Numbered from the stretch's first letter, positions 56,739-64,000 are shown. The stretch is 64,000 nt of DNA from Verrucomicrobiota bacterium (GCA_049510745.1 JBEKYR010000008.1:160001-224000), one strand, 5' to 3'. Translations and numbers: made by a program. The notes: generated from the letters alone by a model not told the origin.

Positions 56739-57911
56739 CTAAATCTTCCCGTAAAACTCTTCGACCACGGCGCGGAAATTGTTCTCGGCCACGTTGATGA
56801 TTTTCATCTCGCGCTCGGCGCTTTCCACCGAATCGCTGGCGTGGGCGGCGTTGACCATGATGGTGGAGCCGAACTCGCGGCGCACGGAACCGGGCGGCGC
56901 TTTGGAAGGATCGGTCGGCCCCAGCACGTCGCGAATTTTCCCGATGGCCGCGACTCCTTCGTAAATGAGCGCGATACACTTTTCGGTGCCGGGCTGGGTT
57001 AACAGGGCCGGGTCGCACTCGGCGGGGGAGCGGCCGGACATGAATTTGACGATGTTCTCAAACTGGTTGTCGCCAAAAGAGGGTCCGAGGATTTCCCCGA
57101 GTTGTTTCTCGTCCCCCGGCGGCACCTTGAAACCGAATTCCTTTTCCAAGGCCGCCTTGGCGCGGGCGGCGACGACGTCTTTGAGCTTGGTGCGCAAGAC
57201 CTCGCGGACGGGGCTGTAAAACTCGGAGGCCTCGGCCACACTCATGCGATGGACTTTGATGCCGACAATGAAAAGACCGGTGCGCGAAAGGAAATCAATG
57301 ACGTTGCCGGGCCGCCCGGTGGCGAAGCGGAAATTGTCCGGCTTGATGAGGACCAGGGTGCGCTGGGGCGTTTCGCCCGGCCCATAGGCCAGCGTGCCGT
57401 TGACAATGCCGCCGTCGGAATCCGAGTAGCGGGCCCAGAGTTTGAGTTTCAGGCCCGCTTCTTCCGGCATGGGCGAGGCCAGCACGGCCGGCTCGAAATA
57501 GCGCACCTGGTCGTGTTCGTCCATGACGAGGTCGCCGTAGGTGTCGCGGATGGTCTCGCCCCCGTGGCGGCCGGGGGCGATGTTGCCGATGACGGAGCGG
57601 GTTTTGCGCACGGCTTCCTCGCCGCGGAACAAGAGCATCATGACGCGGCGGTGCCGCTTGCTCTTCGGGTCCGGGGCCAGATTGCGCAGGATGTAGTCGC
57701 GGATCAATTCCTGGACGCGGCGGTCTTGCGGATCGGCGGCGGAAATGATGAGGTCTGAGTATTGCTGGACCAGCTCGGCGCTGGGGGCGAACATGCGCGC
57801 CGCCACCAATTCCAGTCCGGTGCGGGTGATCAAACGCGCCAGGATGCCGCCGGTGCGCGATTTGTGCAGCGTGTAGGGGGTGATGATGACGTAGGCCAGT
57901 TGTTGCGCCAT
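56739..57911 (-). CDS. ndk: Two-domain nucleoside-diphosphate kinase
   Basis: C-terminal domain: TLVLIKPD, GPTDP..A.PGS.R..FG, NAAHASDS. N-terminal domain is degenerate. Confidence 0.85.
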   Translation of the reverse strand: MAQQLAYVIITPYTLHKSRTGGILARLITRTGLELVAARMFAPSAELVQQYSDLIISAADPQDRRVQELIRDYILRNLAPDPKSKRHRRVMMLLFRGEEAVRKTRSVIGNIAPGRHGGETIRDTYGDLVMDEHDQVRYFEPAVLASPMPEEAGLKLKLWARYSDSDGGIVNGTLAYGPGETPQRTLVLIKPDNFRFATGRPGNVIDFLSRTGLFIVGIKVHRMSVAEASEFYSPVREVLRTKLKDVVAARAKAALEKEFGFKVPPGDEKQLGEILGPSFGDNQFENIVKFMSGRSPAECDPALLTQPGTEKCIALIYEGVAAIGKIRDVLGPTDPSKAPPGSVRREFGSTIMVNAAHASDSVESAEREMKIINVAENNFRAVVEEFYGKI

Positions 57912-57918
57912 AGGGAAG

Positions 57919-58116
57919 TCAGCTTGGCTGGTTGGTGGGCTTGGAAGCAGTGGCTGTCGTCGCGGACGCTTTGCTGCCGCCAAGGATTTTGAACATCACC
58001 ACGCCGCAAGTCGGACACTTGCCCTTGATCGCTTTGCGCCCATTCTTCATCGTCTCTTCAACGGCCTCGGCAATTTCTTTTTTTGCTTTGCACTTAAAAC
58101 AATATCCTTCAGCCAT
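57919..58116 (-). CDS. DUF5679-like small zinc-ribbon protein
   Basis: YCFKCK.K.E......MKNGR.A.KG.CP.CG..MFKI. Confidence 0.85.
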   Translation of the reverse strand: MAEGYCFKCKAKKEIAEAVEETMKNGRKAIKGKCPTCGVVMFKILGGSKASATTATASKPTNQPS

Positions 58117-58275
58117 AAAATCGGACTCGACAAGACGCTTCAAGCAGTCCCGTCGCAGTGCCGGCAGTGTAAAGGTTAGACCTTGCAACCGTCAACTCGT
58201 AAAAGTCCGCCTGATATGTAAGTCCTTCTTAAATAAGATGATATGCTGGGACGGCTTTTCGTCAAAAGAACGCGG

Positions 58276-59760
58276 CTACGGGGCTTTCGAGGCGATTTTG
58301 CGCAGTTCCGTTTTCAGGATCTTGCCCGTCGCGTTATGCGGCAGGGCGGACACAAAAACCACGCGCCGGGGAATTTTGTAGTCGGCCAATCGCTCGCGCG
58401 CGAAGGCCAGCAGCGGCCCCTCCTCCAGTTGGACGCCCTCGTGCGGCGCGACAAACGCCAGCGGCTGCTCTCCGCGCCGCGCGTCGGGCACGCCGATGAC
58501 GGCGGCTTCCCTGACTCCGGGATATTTGTAGAGGATTTCCTCAATCTCGCGGGGATAGACGTTGATGCCGTTGACCAGGAGCATGTCCTTCTTGCGGTCG
58601 GTGATGTAGAAGTAACCGTCGGCGTCACTGTGGCCGATGTCGCCGGTCAAGAGCCAGCCGTTGCGCAGGACGTGGGCTGTGGCGGCGGGCTGATTCCAGT
58701 AGCCCTGCATGACGTTGGGGCCGCGCACACAGACTTCGCCCGTCTGCCCTGGCGGCAGCATCTCCCCGGCCTCGTTCTGAATGGTGACCTCGACGTTGGC
58801 AATGGGTTTGCCAATCGATCCCGCCTTCCACGGGCCGCGAATGGGCTGAAAGGAAACGACCGGACTGGCCTCGCTCAAGCCGTAGCCTTCGAGCAGCGGA
58901 ATGGGAAAGCAGGCGGTGAATTCCCGCAGCGTTTCGGCCGGCAACGGCGCGCCGCCGCTGATGCACAGGCGCAACGGAAAGGCGGGCGGCACCGCGCTGC
59001 GCGCCAGGGCGCGAAAGAATTGCGGCACGGCCGGCAGCAACGTGGCCTGATGCTGGAGGATTTCCAGGAGGACATTCTTGGGCGGATGCAGCGTTTTAAT
59101 GAGAACCATTGAGCCGCCGACCAGCATCGGCAGCAGCAGGCCGACCGTCAGCATGAAACTATGAAACAGGGGCAGGACCACGACAAACCGATCCGTCCCC
59201 ACCGCTTCGAGCGCCACGCGGCAACTCTGCACGTTGGCCAGCAGATTGCCGTGGGAGAGCATCGCCCCCTTGGGATGGCCGGTGGTGCCCGATGTGTAAA
59301 CGAGCACCGCCAGGTCCGCCTCGGTCAAATCGGAAGGGGCCGCCGCGCCGGCGTCCTCCAGCCGGCCAAAGGAGCTGGCGCGGAGCGATTTCAATTCGGG
59401 GCGCCCGGCCGCCAATTTTGCCAAACCCTCATCCATCGTTTCATCCACAATCAGAACATTGATGCCGGCATCGGCGAGAATGAAGCTGACTTCAGCCGGC
59501 TTGAGAAAATTGTTGATCGGCACCGCCACCGCGCCCGCCTGTAAAATGCCGAAGAGCGCCGGGACAAATTCCGGGCAATTCCTGAGCCAGATTCCGACCC
59601 GGTCGCCGCGCCGGACGCCGAAGCCAGCGCGCAACCGTTCCGCCACCCAGAGGGACTGCGACCAGAGATCGAGGTAAGAGAAGCGGGCGTCGCCCCAAAA
59701 GAGGGCGGTCTTGGCGGGATCGCCGCGGGCGTTGGAAGCGAAAGCGAGTGCCAGGTTCAT
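58276..59760 (-). CDS. Long-chain fatty acid--CoA ligase
   Basis: YTSGTTG.PKG, EGYGLSE, RGPNVM.GYW, TGDIG, DRKKD, TGKI.K. Confidence 0.93.
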   Translation of the reverse strand: MNLALAFASNARGDPAKTALFWGDARFSYLDLWSQSLWVAERLRAGFGVRRGDRVGIWLRNCPEFVPALFGILQAGAVAVPINNFLKPAEVSFILADAGINVLIVDETMDEGLAKLAAGRPELKSLRASSFGRLEDAGAAAPSDLTEADLAVLVYTSGTTGHPKGAMLSHGNLLANVQSCRVALEAVGTDRFVVVLPLFHSFMLTVGLLLPMLVGGSMVLIKTLHPPKNVLLEILQHQATLLPAVPQFFRALARSAVPPAFPLRLCISGGAPLPAETLREFTACFPIPLLEGYGLSEASPVVSFQPIRGPWKAGSIGKPIANVEVTIQNEAGEMLPPGQTGEVCVRGPNVMQGYWNQPAATAHVLRNGWLLTGDIGHSDADGYFYITDRKKDMLLVNGINVYPREIEEILYKYPGVREAAVIGVPDARRGEQPLAFVAPHEGVQLEEGPLLAFARERLADYKIPRRVVFVSALPHNATGKILKTELRKIASKAP

Positions 59761-59920
59761 TGAAGTTCCGAATGTTCCCAAGGGGGCCGGAGAAGCGCAA
59801 GGTTGAAAGGGTCGAAATATCAGGGTAGGGGCCGCTTTGGTTTGCTTTGCCTGATCTTGGGTTGTGGGCTACTTTGAATTTCCGCTGGCACGTTGACCGC
59901 AAAAGCGGCACGTTGCCAGC

Positions 59921-60052
59921 ATGATTAAACCGAAGAAGAAGCGCAAGGGAGATGCGGCCCAAGTCGCTTAAAGCGTCATGCAGGAGGTTATCCGAATGAG
60001 CAATAAGCCCATTGTCGCCCCGCCCGCCACAAAGCCCAAGAAAAAGCGGTAA
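59921..60052 (+). pseudogene. Small basic protein, interrupted
   Basis: MIKPKKKRKGDAAQVA*SVMQEVIRMSNKPIVAPPATKPKKKR*, just inside the left TIR. Confidence 0.45.
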
Positions 60053-60099
60053 TTTTCGGGCTTTCTTCATGGGCGGAATTGGGGCTTTATGCGGTGATT

Positions 60100-60699
60100 A
60101 TGCCGAAACCGCAACCGAAGCGCTCCAAGGTCAAAAAGGACACCCCAACGCGTAGGCTTAAATTTGCTGGTCAAATCAGGGAGTGGGCCAAAAAAGATAT
60201 TGTGACCGCAACATTTTTCGCGCAAAGAGGGAGAATATTCAGCGACATGGAATTGGCATTGGTGTGTTATTACTTCATCTGGGATAAATTTAAAGTCCTG
60301 CAATCCGGTCAAAATCCAATCGAACAAGGAATTTTGGGGGAACTATGGACAAAGGAGGTGTCGGACGCATACTCAAAAAACATTTCGCAACTTTTTGCCC
60401 AAGATCGAAGAAAACTATGCGGGATATTCTTGAATGCAGTGGAAAACCGCGATGCTGGAAAGATTTTAGAGATTGCCAAGGCGGTCAAATTCTTAAAGAC
60501 ATTCAAAGAGAATAGCGACCATTGCCGGGCTGGCATCTTGGGTTTGAAAAGTGTACTGGATAAAAATAACCGAAAAATGCCAATCAGCGAACTGGCGCGG
60601 GCGGTCAAATGGCCTGCAAGTGACGCAAAGCACGGATTTTGGAGACTTCGCAGAATCGCCAAGGAATTGAATTTCCCGCTGGAGCCTCAACACAAATAA
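60100..60699 (+). CDS. Hypothetical passenger protein, possible C-terminal HTH
   Basis: 199-aa AT-rich ORF; MPISELARAV.W......WRLRRIAKEL. Confidence 0.65.
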   Translation: MPKPQPKRSKVKKDTPTRRLKFAGQIREWAKKDIVTATFFAQRGRIFSDMELALVCYYFIWDKFKVLQSGQNPIEQGILGELWTKEVSDAYSKNISQLFAQDRRKLCGIFLNAVENRDAGKILEIAKAVKFLKTFKENSDHCRAGILGLKSVLDKNNRKMPISELARAVKWPASDAKHGFWRLRRIAKELNFPLEPQHK

Positions 60700-60887
60700 G
60701 GCCGTGCAAACCGCGATAATGTGTTGAGTGTGTTTCAACTTCATAGGGTAAATTCCCCTCACGGAACTGCAATTCCGCAATAGGCGCATGTAATTTAGAA
60801 ACCGCTTTGTGTCCAATGCCCGCGCCGGGTGTTTTGCAGTTGGATGCGAGGCGGTTTTCGTTTTTGCGATTATGAAATTAAAACGGT

Positions 60888-60981
60888 CGCGCTTGCGTAG
60901 CCATTAAGGGCGGATACGTGGAGCGCGGACAAATGGGCACGGCCCGCTTGGTGATTCTTTGGCAAGACAACCAAGCGGGCC
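60888..60981 (+). ncRNA. Two strong hairpins upstream of the tRNA-like RNA (leader or separate structured RNA)
   Basis: CGCGCTT-GCGTA-GCC...GGC..TACGT..GAGCGCG (60888-60928) and GGCCCGCTTGGT...ACCAAGCGGGCC (60941-60981; 12-bp perfect stem). Confidence 0.55.
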
Positions 60982-60996
60982 GCAAACGTAATGAAT

Positions 60997-61092
60997 GGGG
61001 CCAGTCCCCTTTGGCTGGACGCCGTAACGCGGGTTTAGACCGCTAGGGGCATTGTGTAATGCAATGGGGTTCGACTCCCACTGGTTCCACCA
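60997..61092 (+). ncRNA. Non-canonical tRNA-like RNA (9/3 allo-tRNA-like; Ala identity elements; UUA in anticodon-like loop)
   Basis: GGGGCCAGT pairs with ACTGGTTCC, followed by A-CCA. T arm GGG-TTCGACT-CCC. Internal hairpins GGC-TGGAC-GCC, GCGG-GTTTAGA-CCGC and CATTG-TGTAATG-CAATG. Confidence 0.72.
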
Positions 61093-61248
61093 TTTACGCG
61101 GATACAGAACCACAGTCTGCCGCTGAAAGCAAGACTTTTCTGGCCCATTTCGACTGCGACAGGCCAGATTTGACGATTGTCGCATCAATTGTTTTGCGCT
61201 CGCCAGCCGTGAACCGGAGTTTTATGGCGTGCAAACAGGACAACATAC

Positions 61249-61797
61249 CTAGTCCGCCATCTCGCCGGTAAAAAACTCCACTATTTGTTCTTTTGTTCGC
61301 GGCTTGGTGCCGCGCTTCTGCACTACTTCGTGGTAAACTAAATAGAATCCAGTCCAGACGTCAGATTCATCGCCCTTTTGCTTTCTTATCACCTGGTCAA
61401 AACACGTCTCCCAGTAATATTGAATGTAAATCGAGTAGTCGCAATAAATCCTACTTTTCTGCATTTCATGGTCTTCAAGCGCGGAGCCAAGATCATTAAA
61501 GAAATCAATTATATCCTCGCTTATGTCGGCTGGTTTATCCAGGTTTTCCAAGATTATTTTTGCGGCTTTTTGGCGCTTTGGTTCAAGCCGTTCCCAGCGT
61601 TCCTCGAAGTAATTGGCCCTTTCTTCGGCTTTTTCACCCCACTTGAACCGAGATATGAGAACGCAAAGGATTGCGCTTATGATAAACCATTTGCCTGCAA
61701 TCGCGTGGTCTTGTGATGCGATGGCGGCAAAAAGCGGGGCACCAACTAACACAACCAGCCCCTCCGCTCGAATCCATCTGTGGAGCCAAGGAAACAT
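61249..61797 (-). CDS. Hypothetical membrane-anchored passenger protein (DUF4760-like C-terminus)
   Basis: Two N-terminal TM segments; II.FF..LG.......I...Y..YI.YYWE. Confidence 0.65.
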   Translation of the reverse strand: MFPWLHRWIRAEGLVVLVGAPLFAAIASQDHAIAGKWFIISAILCVLISRFKWGEKAEERANYFEERWERLEPKRQKAAKIILENLDKPADISEDIIDFFNDLGSALEDHEMQKSRIYCDYSIYIQYYWETCFDQVIRKQKGDESDVWTGFYLVYHEVVQKRGTKPRTKEQIVEFFTGEMAD

Positions 61798-62093
61798 TTG
61801 GCCAGATTGACCCTAAATCCGATGTTGAAAAGGCATTTTTTGAGCCTGTTTTGCTTTCACATCCCGAATTTATACCACTACTATTCAGAAAATACGTGCT
61901 TCATGTTGAATATCAGAGGTTTACAAATCGCGCCGCAGAGCGGCGGCGCGATTTGTAAGATCTCTCAATTTCTCCGTTGACAGGTTCTTGGCTGAAAACG
62001 CGGCGGGCGCGATTACAAGCTTCAAAGTAGCCCACTACCTGGCCTTGACTGGGCTTGACCGGACAAGGAGGAAGGCAGGATGAATTCAGCGGT

Positions 62094-63434
62094 TCAACGG
62101 CGGCGCGCCGTCAACGAGGAGGGTCGGGATTTCTTCCGGGTGCTTTTCGCCGCCGCCGGTTTTGCGCCTGTCCGGGCGTGTTGTTCCATCGCGGCTTCGA
62201 CCCGGGCGCGGTCGGTTTCGACAAAGCACTGGAGTTGTTCGGCGGAGGGCAGCACCGTGAGATAGCGGGAAACGAAGAGGCGGTTGTCCATGCCCGCCGT
62301 GGCGAACTGCACCTTGGTGTGGTCCTTGTCGCTACAGAGGAGGATGCCGACGGGCGGTTGATCGCCCTCCGCCATCATGCGGTCCTTAAAATAGTTGAGG
62401 TAATAATTCATCTGGCCCGCGTCGCCGTGTTGGAAGGGGCGGACTTTCAGATCGAGCAGGACGTGGCAACGGAGGCGCCGTTGATAGAAGACCAAATCCA
62501 CGTAGTCGTGCTCGTTGCCAAGGGTCACCCGGAACTGGCGGGCCTCGAAACAAAAGCCCGTGCCGAGTTCGAGCAGGAATTTTTGCAGGTGGTCGAGCAG
62601 GGCCGTTTCGAGATCGCTCTCGGTGTATTGCGGCAATTGGGCGAGGCCGGTGAATTCGAGGACGTAGGGATCGCGGATCAGGTCTTCGATGGTTTCCTGC
62701 GGCTCTTGAGCGCGGGCGCGTTTGATGACGGCGGCTTTATTTCTGGAAAGACCGGTCCGCTCAAAAAGGAGTGACCCAATCTGGCGTTGAAGCTGGCGCT
62801 TCGACCAGTTGCCCTTGAGACACTCGTTTTCATAGAAGGCGCGCTTTAGCGGGTCGTCGATGCGAATGAGTTCAAGGATGTGCGTCCAGGAGAAATGAAG
62901 GACGGCTTCGGGAGAAAGAGGCGTTATGCCGGAAGATTGGCCAACCCGTGGTTGGCCAATTCCGTAACCGGTGGTGACGGAATGACCAGCCAGACCAGAG
63001 GTTGCCGGCGCGCTCAATTCCGTAAGCGGTGAGGACGGAATTTTGCCGCCAAAAGCGCGCCGGGAAATCCTCACCGGTGGTGAGGATTTTTGACTCCCAC
63101 CGCCTGGCAGAAGGAGACGATTGCCCAATTCCCTCACCAGCGGTGAGGAAATCTTTGAGCCAAGTTGAGGATAAACTCCGTAGAGCAGGCGTGTGCGTTC
63201 CAACATCTGAACGCTTAAGCCACCGATCCCACGTTGTTTCAGGTCAGCGGCAAGCCGTGACAACAATCGGACTCCGTATTTCGCGCGATCCTCGCCATTC
63301 TGCTCGAATTCCACGAGGTATGCCCCAACCAGCCAGTTACGGATGACGAGGGATTGATTGACGACGGCGGCGGCGCGACCGAGCAACTCCCGGCTGGCCG
63401 AATCAATCGCTTTGACAAGTTGATTGTATCTCAT
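62094..63434 (-). CDS. YhcG/DUF1016 family PD-(D/E)xK nuclease-domain protein
   Basis: W.VG.Y.VEFEQ.GEDRA.YG, SWTH, R.FYE, WS.R.L.RQI, DPY.LEF, FLLELG.GF.F, GQMN.Y. Confidence 0.92.
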   Translation of the reverse strand: MRYNQLVKAIDSASRELLGRAAAVVNQSLVIRNWLVGAYLVEFEQNGEDRAKYGVRLLSRLAADLKQRGIGGLSVQMLERTRLLYGVYPQLGSKISSPLVRELGNRLLLPGGGSQKSSPPVRISRRAFGGKIPSSPLTELSAPATSGLAGHSVTTGYGIGQPRVGQSSGITPLSPEAVLHFSWTHILELIRIDDPLKRAFYENECLKGNWSKRQLQRQIGSLLFERTGLSRNKAAVIKRARAQEPQETIEDLIRDPYVLEFTGLAQLPQYTESDLETALLDHLQKFLLELGTGFCFEARQFRVTLGNEHDYVDLVFYQRRLRCHVLLDLKVRPFQHGDAGQMNYYLNYFKDRMMAEGDQPPVGILLCSDKDHTKVQFATAGMDNRLFVSRYLTVLPSAEQLQCFVETDRARVEAAMEQHARTGAKPAAAKSTRKKSRPSSLTARRR

Positions 63435-63779
63435 GGGCGTCAGCGGGTGGCGTCACAAACTTCGTGCAGATGTCGCGCTCGCTGAGGGCCTCTTTCTCGG
63501 CTGAGGCCGTTCCAACTTCCGGTCGAGCGCACCGGCGGCGGCAACGACACGAGGGAGATCAAGGTGTCCAGTCGGGGGCGCTTGCCCGGCGATTGGTGAA
63601 ACTTTCGCGTCTTCAGCCATTGTGACTTCCGAGAGGATGGGCCGTAATGAGCAGACTTGCAGCAAAAAACGTCCTCCCGGGTGACTTGGGCGGGGCGGAG
63701 CGCATGAAGGCATTTGCAATTTTCGCGCGCGGAGATACAATAGGAGGAGTTGTTGAACCGGTTCAATCGTTGTTTTTCT

Positions 63780-64000
63780 ATGAGTTGGATGCTTTTTGCT
63801 TTGATGACGGTCGTTTCGTGGGGGCTTTATGGAATCTTTCTGCACAGCGGCCAGACGGCCATGGCGGACAAATCCAACGGCCTCTTTAAATCGTTCTTAT
63901 TCGTCGGCCTGGCTTACTTCTTGACAGCCGTGCTCGCCCCGCTGGCCATGCTGGCGACGCGCAAGACGGACTGGAGTTTTCCAACCGCCGGCATGGGATG
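63780..64000 (+). CDS. Membrane protein (EamA-like possible), 3' partial
   Basis: MSWMLFALMTVVSWGLYGIFLHSGQ...FLFVGLAYFL.AVLAPL; open to the window end. Confidence 0.7.
   Translation, partial: MSWMLFALMTVVSWGLYGIFLHSGQTAMADKSNGLFKSFLFVGLAYFLTAVLAPLAMLATRKTDWSFPTAGMG

Follow-up and report, generated by a model that had tools for sequence, protein, structure and literature searches.

Some insertion sequences of the IS1 family carry passenger genes. A G3:U70 pair together with A73 is established as the alanine identity of tRNAs, and RNA-RNA toxin-antitoxin systems of type VIII are exemplified by CreTA and SdsR/RyeA. Here we describe a 2.18-kb element of IS1 type that encodes a tRNA-like RNA with alanine identity. 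It occupies positions 59,860 to 62,039 of a 64,000-nucleotide stretch of DNA, hereafter the window, from a Verrucomicrobiota bacterium (GCA_049510745.1, JBEKYR010000008.1:160001-224000). Coordinates count from the first nucleotide of the window (Table 1), and related loci, genomes and contigs carry the labels L, G and C, respectively.

The closest described RNAs are the (9/3) allo-tRNAs. In the paper on them (Mukai et al., 2017, PMC5389517), these RNAs combine a 12-bp acceptor branch split 9/3, a long variable arm, G3:U70 and UUA; two (9/3) UUA sequences appear in the supplement, and one of these has A73. Genes for allo-tRNAs are frequently found close to toxin-antitoxin systems or to a transposon gene, and the biological role of the RNAs was left open (PMC5389517). 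Transposon-linked allo-tRNAs are therefore already known. In the literature searched, which does not extend to most subscription journals, only the allo-tRNA papers were returned for an IS1 tRNA cassette or an antisense-controlled toxic tRNA, and no description of a tRNA-like slot with antisense signals in IS1 elements was found. Within that literature, a swappable, alanine-identity tRNA mimic with a UAN-box loop, bracketed by antisense signals, is apparently new.

The locus shares with the IS1 family its 19-bp inverted repeats, an 8-bp duplication and, in relatives, a transposase of the DDE_Tnp_IS1/transpos_IS1 type, but the window copy lacks a transposase. With type VIII systems it would share an RNA toxin that acts on translation and an RNA antitoxin. 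In contrast to those systems, the toxin proposed here would be a tRNA mimic that can itself be charged, its antitoxin would be a cis-antisense RNA copying it in full, and there is no CRISPR link.

Origin of the element

The termini of the element are complementary at 18 of 19 positions, and its 8-bp flanks (TGATCTTG and TGGCCTTG) agree at six of eight, a level of identity reached in 0.7% of 200,000 draws of random 8-mer pairs from the window. GC content is 0.48 in the interior and 0.61 in the whole window, and tblastn with a related transposase as query found no transposase similarity inside the element. These results reproduce a sequence-only reading of the window, including its view that the element is non-autonomous and its account of the cargo (an interrupted small basic open reading frame (ORF), a 199-aa ORF, structured RNA and a convergent ORF). 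One additional ORF, which encodes a 50-aa ribbon-helix-helix-like protein, had been overlooked.

The exact 19-mer of the end occurs at no fewer than 123 loci in the species collection, and long flanks were obtained for 80 of them. Named records among the loci listed come mostly from Acidobacteriota, with a few from Verrucomicrobiota and others. Pairing of ends among these listed loci yielded 43 distinct elements, with a perfect 8-bp duplication in 28 and at least six of eight matching positions in 36. A full transposase is present in eight of the 43 (1716–3922 bp) and a partial one in five; the other 30 have none (32–1179 bp). The family transposases, 275–280 aa in length, match Pfam DDE_Tnp_IS1 with scores at or near the cut-off and NCBIfam transpos_IS1 with E 5e-13, under its cut-off. 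Identical ends around such transposases bear out the IS1 origin proposed earlier, and the duplication, predicted at 8–9 bp, is 8 bp in the family. The possibility, raised in the same proposal, that these ends never accompany a transposase was checked and does not hold. The ISMhu11-like label (ISMhu11 subgroup) that had been attached to the element is unconfirmed, the name being absent from the literature searched; the ends do fit GGnnnTG, the motif of IS1-type ends.

Complete relatives indicate how the window copy arose. L142 (3204 bp) and L183 (3328 bp) share these ends with the window element and have perfect duplications. They also have its left-end gene and its tRNA-like RNA, which lies there 337–353 nt upstream of the transposase. 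In both, the small basic gene is followed by the variable gene, the hairpins, the tRNA-like gene, a small gene, the transposase and passengers. The window element matches this arrangement as far as the RNA and the reverse ribbon-helix-helix-like ORF; homology stops near 61225, and 61249 is where the convergent 182-aa gene ends. Between these points, at about 61225 to 61250, the transposase region was probably lost. The window element is almost certainly an internal-deletion derivative of a passenger-carrying IS1-family element, one that retains the two ends, the genes at the left, the RNA cassette and a single passenger at the right. An assembly artefact is ruled out because all 2180 bases recur without a difference, between the same flanks, in metagenome contigs L182 and L184; these contigs and the window genome may represent one population. 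In an empty-site comparison with both genus relatives, similarity to the window ended by about 59808, short of the left flank.

We searched the host genome for a cognate transposase by way of the ends, as the sequence-only reading had recommended, and recovered only defective copies and remnants. One copy (C2:26127-27202) has a 7/8 duplication and only the C-terminal 90 residues of a transposase, another (C7:106989-108350) has a perfect duplication and one 414-aa gene but no transposase, and a lone family end lies on C18. The remaining transposase matches are a truncated one (42%) with different ends and a short remnant. Active miniature inverted-repeat elements or mobilised cassettes would show many near-identical copies and a helper, whereas the window element is single-copy and no intact cognate helper transposase was found in this 94% complete, 85-contig assembly. 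Mobilisation in trans, which had been suggested, is thus not supported. Because no intact helper was found, the window copy looks like a single decayed relic, not an active vehicle. Decay shows at the left end and in the duplication, as an in-frame TAA in the small ORF, and in the −10 box of the antisense promoter-like site.

Two side observations concern transposition in this family. The C2 copy and the window element (59852/62040) are both inserted in similar GTCAAG(G/C)CC repeat tracts, the tandem form of which occurs six times in the host genome; the shared sites may reflect a target preference. Minimal elements of 32–38 bp (L006, L034, L047, L063, L078, L093, L098, L103 and L110) are built from two ends that overlap; most of them are flanked by a perfect 8-bp duplication. 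They are possibly end products of internal deletion or scars of precise loss.

Table 1. Features of the element and its flanks, in window coordinates.
Feature	Position	Strand	Remarks
Left 8-bp target duplication copy	59852..59859	.	6/8 vs right copy; family norm 8 bp
Left terminal inverted repeat	59860..59878	+	1 change vs family consensus
Small basic ORF, 43 codons	59921..60052	+	conserved at left end of family; in-frame TAA at 59969-71
199-aa protein ORF, variable gene slot	60100..60699	+	mostly helical; unnamed family
Hairpin A and T-run, terminator-like	60797..60865	+	z −3.9; homologues in L128, L132, L139
Hairpin B	60940..60982	-	followed in many relatives by a minus-strand T-run (antisense terminator-like); T-run weak here
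tRNA-like RNA, 96 nt	60997..61092	+	9-bp acceptor, 3-bp T-stem, G3:U70, A73, encoded CCA
50-aa ribbon-helix-helix-like ORF, NikA/MbpA-like	61094..61246	-	Pfam NikA-like, E 9e-6, just under cut-off
Antisense promoter-like site	61104..61132	-	−35 TTGCTT, 17-nt spacer; −10 degenerate here, fits in most relatives
Inferred deletion junction, transposase region lost	61225..61250	.	from comparison with complete elements
182-aa passenger, hydrophobic N-terminus, convergent	61249..61797	-	DUF4760-like (lead only)
Perfect 16-bp inverted repeat	61921..61958	.	upstream of 182-aa gene; z −8.5
Right terminal inverted repeat	62021..62039	-	identical to family consensus
Right 8-bp target duplication copy	62040..62047	.	

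Structure of the tRNA-like RNA

The RNA has a canonical T-loop, a long variable arm and a central loop, GUUUAGA, with the triplet UUA. An extra 5-bp helix is stacked on the acceptor and encloses D-like and anticodon-like hairpins. Folding z-scores are −3.9 and −5.3 for the two neighbouring hairpins and −3.1 for the tRNA-like RNA. In a structural alignment of six sequences (window, L142, L144, L166/L186, L183 and L185), 96% of cells were paired, compared with 42–54% in slid controls, and none of 500 shuffles scored as high. Five pairs changed on both sides, two of them in the extra helix, in a set where six related sequences are few and kinship can beat shuffles. Given this covarying helix the fold is not a plain cloverleaf, so decoding is not a given. 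The acceptor and T-arm are the best-kept parts, and every helix of the window RNA is unbroken.

Standard searches give little trace of this RNA. ARAGORN with default settings misses it, and Rfam over 57000-64000 gave three matches at E<=1, none at gathering score, of which the sole trace on the RNA is a 13-nt T-arm match (E 0.51). A model built for the RNA matched in 4 of 31 family genomes, all previously known, and in 1 of 151 order genomes; over 26 sources it returned six matches, all training sequences. This exact RNA occurs in four metagenome stretches, two of which are the window's own sequence, and a 9/3-type pattern had no matches in viral_contigs.

Like the (9/3) allo-tRNAs, the RNA has a 12-bp acceptor branch formed as 9 + 3 and a long variable arm. 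Their cloverleaf has a long D-stem with a tetraloop and no extra helix, whereas the window RNA has the covarying helix between its acceptor and D/anticodon arms, a 5-nt D-like loop (by eye) and G32. None of its sequence words occurs in the allo-tRNA table of PMC5389517; the five-stem-junction figure of that paper (S5) may contain a similar fold. The tRNA-like domain of transfer-messenger RNA (tmRNA) also has a GGGG start, G3:U70, A73, CCA, a T-arm and a long helix adjoining the acceptor. Unlike tmRNA, the window RNA is only 96 nt long, with no tag ORF, no D-loop at the junction and a 9/3 split. We rejected a tmRNA identity, for which a tag frame, pseudoknots and a length of about 350 nt are lacking; the host's own tmRNA is on C29.

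Upstream of the RNA, the stretch 60740-60865 is conserved (also in L146, L145 and L142) and contains an extended −10-like site followed by hairpin A and its T-run. It perhaps encodes an independent small RNA, ~110 nt long and located after the variable gene, that ends with hairpin A. Short K/R-rich frames or a conserved AGAAGAG-like motif precede hairpin B in the window (60873-60908) and in L142, L147, L150, L183, L185 and L228; by eye, the stops of these frames vary among TAA, TAG and TGA.

A tRNA-like slot in the transposase family

Is the RNA peculiar to the window copy? From the loci retrieved we assembled 55 distinct transposases that are 43% or more identical to the L128 protein and for which the start and at least 500 nt of upstream sequence were included. 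A tRNA descriptor matched upstream of 20 of these, in 19 cases on the transposase strand, and matched none of the 55 in each of five shuffles. The position is regular (50–350 nt upstream), and all nine transposases with at least 71% identity to L128 have a tRNA-like gene. The scaffolds are diverse; besides the 9/3 type they include canonical 7/5 types, RNAs whose D-arm is shrunken and one body of Ser type. Alanine identity (G3:U70 with A73) is nonetheless found in 17 of the 20 RNAs. With the window included, the best-scoring loop is NUA in 15 of 21 (10 UUA, 2 CUA, 3 GUA); four of the others hold an NUA loop in another register and two do not. The slot is native to the family, and its occupant varies.

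Similar arrangements extend beyond these transposases. L150 has a hairpin and tRNA-like cassette ahead of an IS1595 transposase, and L185 has a 9/3 RNA with both antisense signals but neither these ends nor the family transposase.

These comparisons bear on the idea, put forward in the sequence-only reading, that the element is a vehicle for a module of tRNA mimic plus protein. The tabulation of cargo that it had called for does show that the mimic recurs. Its status as cargo peculiar to a transposase-less vehicle does not stand, the RNA being native to autonomous relatives. Nor is there a fixed module: the genes adjoining the RNA differ between elements, and in G008 hairpin A and a more distant transposase come after a homologue of the 199-aa gene, with no sense tRNA-like gene detected upstream. 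A purpose-built vehicle that spreads such a module is thus not shown.

Two further loci contain unusual tRNA genes. L146:5448-5641 (G008:C6) has two irregular tandem tRNA-like genes, one with a Leu-type body, that are convergent on a transposase and preceded by a hairpin B-like hairpin with an A-run. Small contigs G000:C73, C74 and C75 carry arrays of divergent tRNA genes, including UUA (stop) and UAU calls, and are likely a mobile or phage tRNA cluster.

Signals on the opposite strand

The surroundings of the RNA were examined in a hand-curated set of 24 RNAs, 22 from insertion sequences together with those of the window and L185. The promoter pattern (TTG-nnn, 16–18 nt, nAnnnT) was sought on the minus strand just past the RNA 3' end, and the terminator pattern, a long GC-rich hairpin then a minus-strand T-run, past the 5' end. 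Each was found in 16 of the 24 RNAs and both in 13; a sense-strand terminator was found in one. Among all 76 ARAGORN calls of the host genome, which served as a control, four had the promoter, two the terminator and none both, and of 769 background windows 49 contained the promoter pattern. In L142, L183, L143, L144, L149 and L196 the promoter pattern is present and no overlying reverse gene was seen. Taken at face value, the two signals predict an antisense RNA that covers the whole tRNA-like gene.

Proteins and neighbouring genes

At the position of the in-frame TAA in the small basic ORF, the seven other distinct homologues have TAC/TAT (five) or CAC (two), encoding Tyr or His. The 199-aa protein has 158 distant representatives at E<=0.001 and is modelled with pLDDT 96 as mostly helical, its C-terminal part probably helix-turn-helix-like. 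It has no Pfam family at cut-off, no Atlas match at 0.9, a best PDB sequence match of E 0.084 and no Foldseek match at E<=0.001; the best VIA Z (6.4) falls on helical hairpins, with no clear structural match. The family is present in 3 of 31 family genomes and 2 of 301 order genomes. By eye, the variable-slot genes of L142, L147, L130, L139 and L183, for which there is no Pfam match, have the faint motifs LL.FL.WW, W.PEQII and FFQW in common and may form one divergent family distinct from the 199-aa protein.

Homologues of the 50-aa ORF lie between the RNA and the transposase in L147, L165, L195, L208, L209, L228, L230 and L233, and homology to these relatives ceases near 61225. For the 182-aa protein, eight homologous proteins were listed, one of them from this very sequence, and among 301 order genomes it occurs in one, its own. 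The DUF4760 lead comes from an Atlas feature (score 0.93) and applies to a cluster in which 33% of members have that family; a weak SLATT match is under the cut-off. Neither the 199-aa nor the 182-aa protein is tied to the tRNA-like RNA. The 16-bp inverted repeat has no homologue among the related loci compared.

The element lies between an AMP-binding (acyl-CoA ligase) gene on its left and a YhcG/DUF1016 gene on its right. The latter (62094-63434, minus strand) has an apparent insert between two DUF1016_N stretches, with direct and inverted repeats at 62957-63152.

Discussion

To explain the cassette we tentatively favour, at rather less than an even chance, an RNA-only form of addiction in which a toxic misreading tRNA is silenced by an antisense RNA. 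The tRNA-like RNA would be charged by the host alanyl-tRNA synthetase (AlaRS) via G3:U70 and A73, and its UUA, CUA or GUA loop would misread UAA, UAG or tyrosine codons and so be toxic. A promoter just past the CCA end would transcribe back across the gene and stop at hairpin B, and the resulting cis-antisense RNA of roughly 150–180 nt would silence the tRNA-like gene. Such a toxin/antitoxin RNA pair would protect the element from loss. Readthrough would be costly, since of the 4625 long open frames in this genome 1984 terminate at TAA or TAG. Amber-converted G3:U70 allo-tRNAs inserted alanine in Escherichia coli, and missense allo-tRNAs arrested growth (PMC5389517). The addiction role suggested in the sequence-only reading is still plausible, acting through RNA instead of protein. 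In the window copy the antisense signals look decayed, and the module may be silent or neutral here.

Several points weigh against this interpretation. Charging by AlaRS, misreading of UAA, UAG or tyrosine codons, toxicity and antisense silencing are all predictions from sequence. The extra helix, G32 and C37 are departures from a decoding tRNA; C at position 37, which is frequent in the slot RNAs, is not canonical. Only 9 of the 20 slot RNAs have an encoded CCA, and no tRNA-like gene was detected for 35 of the 55 transposases, including all 22 in the 55–65% identity group. All six transposon-linked UAU allo-tRNAs were inactive in translation, and two were lethal (PMC5389517). In the window no sense promoter for the RNA could be pinned down, and the window copy fails both strict antisense patterns, its −10 box having no A and its T-run being short. 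Its RNA is intact all the same, whereas a functional toxin ought to require a functional antitoxin. The sequences had already been seen when the promoter and terminator patterns were drawn up, the 24 RNAs were hand-picked from descriptor and ARAGORN matches, and the counts are not independent because the cassettes are kin. Finally, in elements that carry the reverse regulator gene, the Leu-Leu codons of that gene overlap the −35 motif, and the function of hairpin B could be no more than to terminate the mRNA of the gene.

An alternative, which we consider unlikely, is that the tRNA mimic is a decoy or anti-phage RNA that sequesters an anticodon nuclease, AlaRS or some phage factor recognising a UAN-box loop, with the antisense signals only tuning the RNA level. 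This would account for the retention of the identity elements and NUA loop on unlike scaffolds, several of them ill-suited to decoding, and for the cassettes found before the IS1595 transposase of L150 and, without the family ends or transposase, in L185. However, the RNA has no cognate nuclease or defence gene as a constant neighbour, the genes beside it vary, and viral contigs gave no match to the 9/3-type pattern.

Somewhat less likely again is a role in processing or insulation. The tRNA-like fold would be the site at which RNase P and 3' nucleases cut transcripts that read through, and convergent transcription would shield the transposase promoter from them. The regular upstream position of the slot, the shared strand in 19 of 20 cases and the strong conservation of the acceptor and T-arm fit such a role. 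Processing, however, requires neither G3:U70 nor an NUA loop, though both are conserved, and many relatives do without the RNA.

We regard as improbable a private suppressor, in which the RNA would read a stop or chosen codon in the element's own gene and thereby gate transposition. The small ORF of the window is broken by TAA, the codon that matches the UUA anticodon, and several relatives have, by eye, short K/R-rich frames that end in TAA or TAG ahead of hairpin B. However, just one of eight distinct small ORFs has the TAA, and the apparent conservation past the transposase stop fits better, by eye, with an overlapping gene in another frame. Readthrough of the transposase stop and codon gating, each tried as a candidate, found no support: the transposase frames are open, TAA is not avoided (12 of 19 transposases with the RNA end in it, compared with 12 of 32 without) and RNA-bearing elements show no excess of ATA (1.3 vs 1.2 per gene). 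Least probable of all is a hitch-hiking cassette with no selected role in these elements. In its favour, all own-genome copies of the ends are defective, and the window copy has the signs of decay listed above. Against it, compensatory changes, and an alanine identity and loop that recur on scaffolds of different kinds, speak for selection in the family, and the window RNA has no broken helix.

RNA-only addiction could also be cast more broadly, as a portable cassette that pairs a swappable, alanine-charged tRNA mimic misreading the UAN box with a full-length cis-antisense antitoxin. We think this broader form possible but doubtful, as we do the view that its carriers are IS1 elements and also sites before an IS1595 transposase and outside insertion sequences. 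If true, it would explain why allo-tRNAs cluster on mobile DNA.

By itself, the window copy is an ordinary decayed derivative, and its value is as a pointer to the family cassette. The element family offers a test bed of complete elements in which one slot holds many tRNA-like genes that share alanine identity and a UAN-box loop, and for which an antisense transcript of defined ends is predicted. If the toxin-antitoxin interpretation is true, these genes would constitute a new class of toxin made of tRNA; otherwise, the RNAs, with their unusual fold, would still be natural candidates for stop-suppressor or decoy scaffolds.

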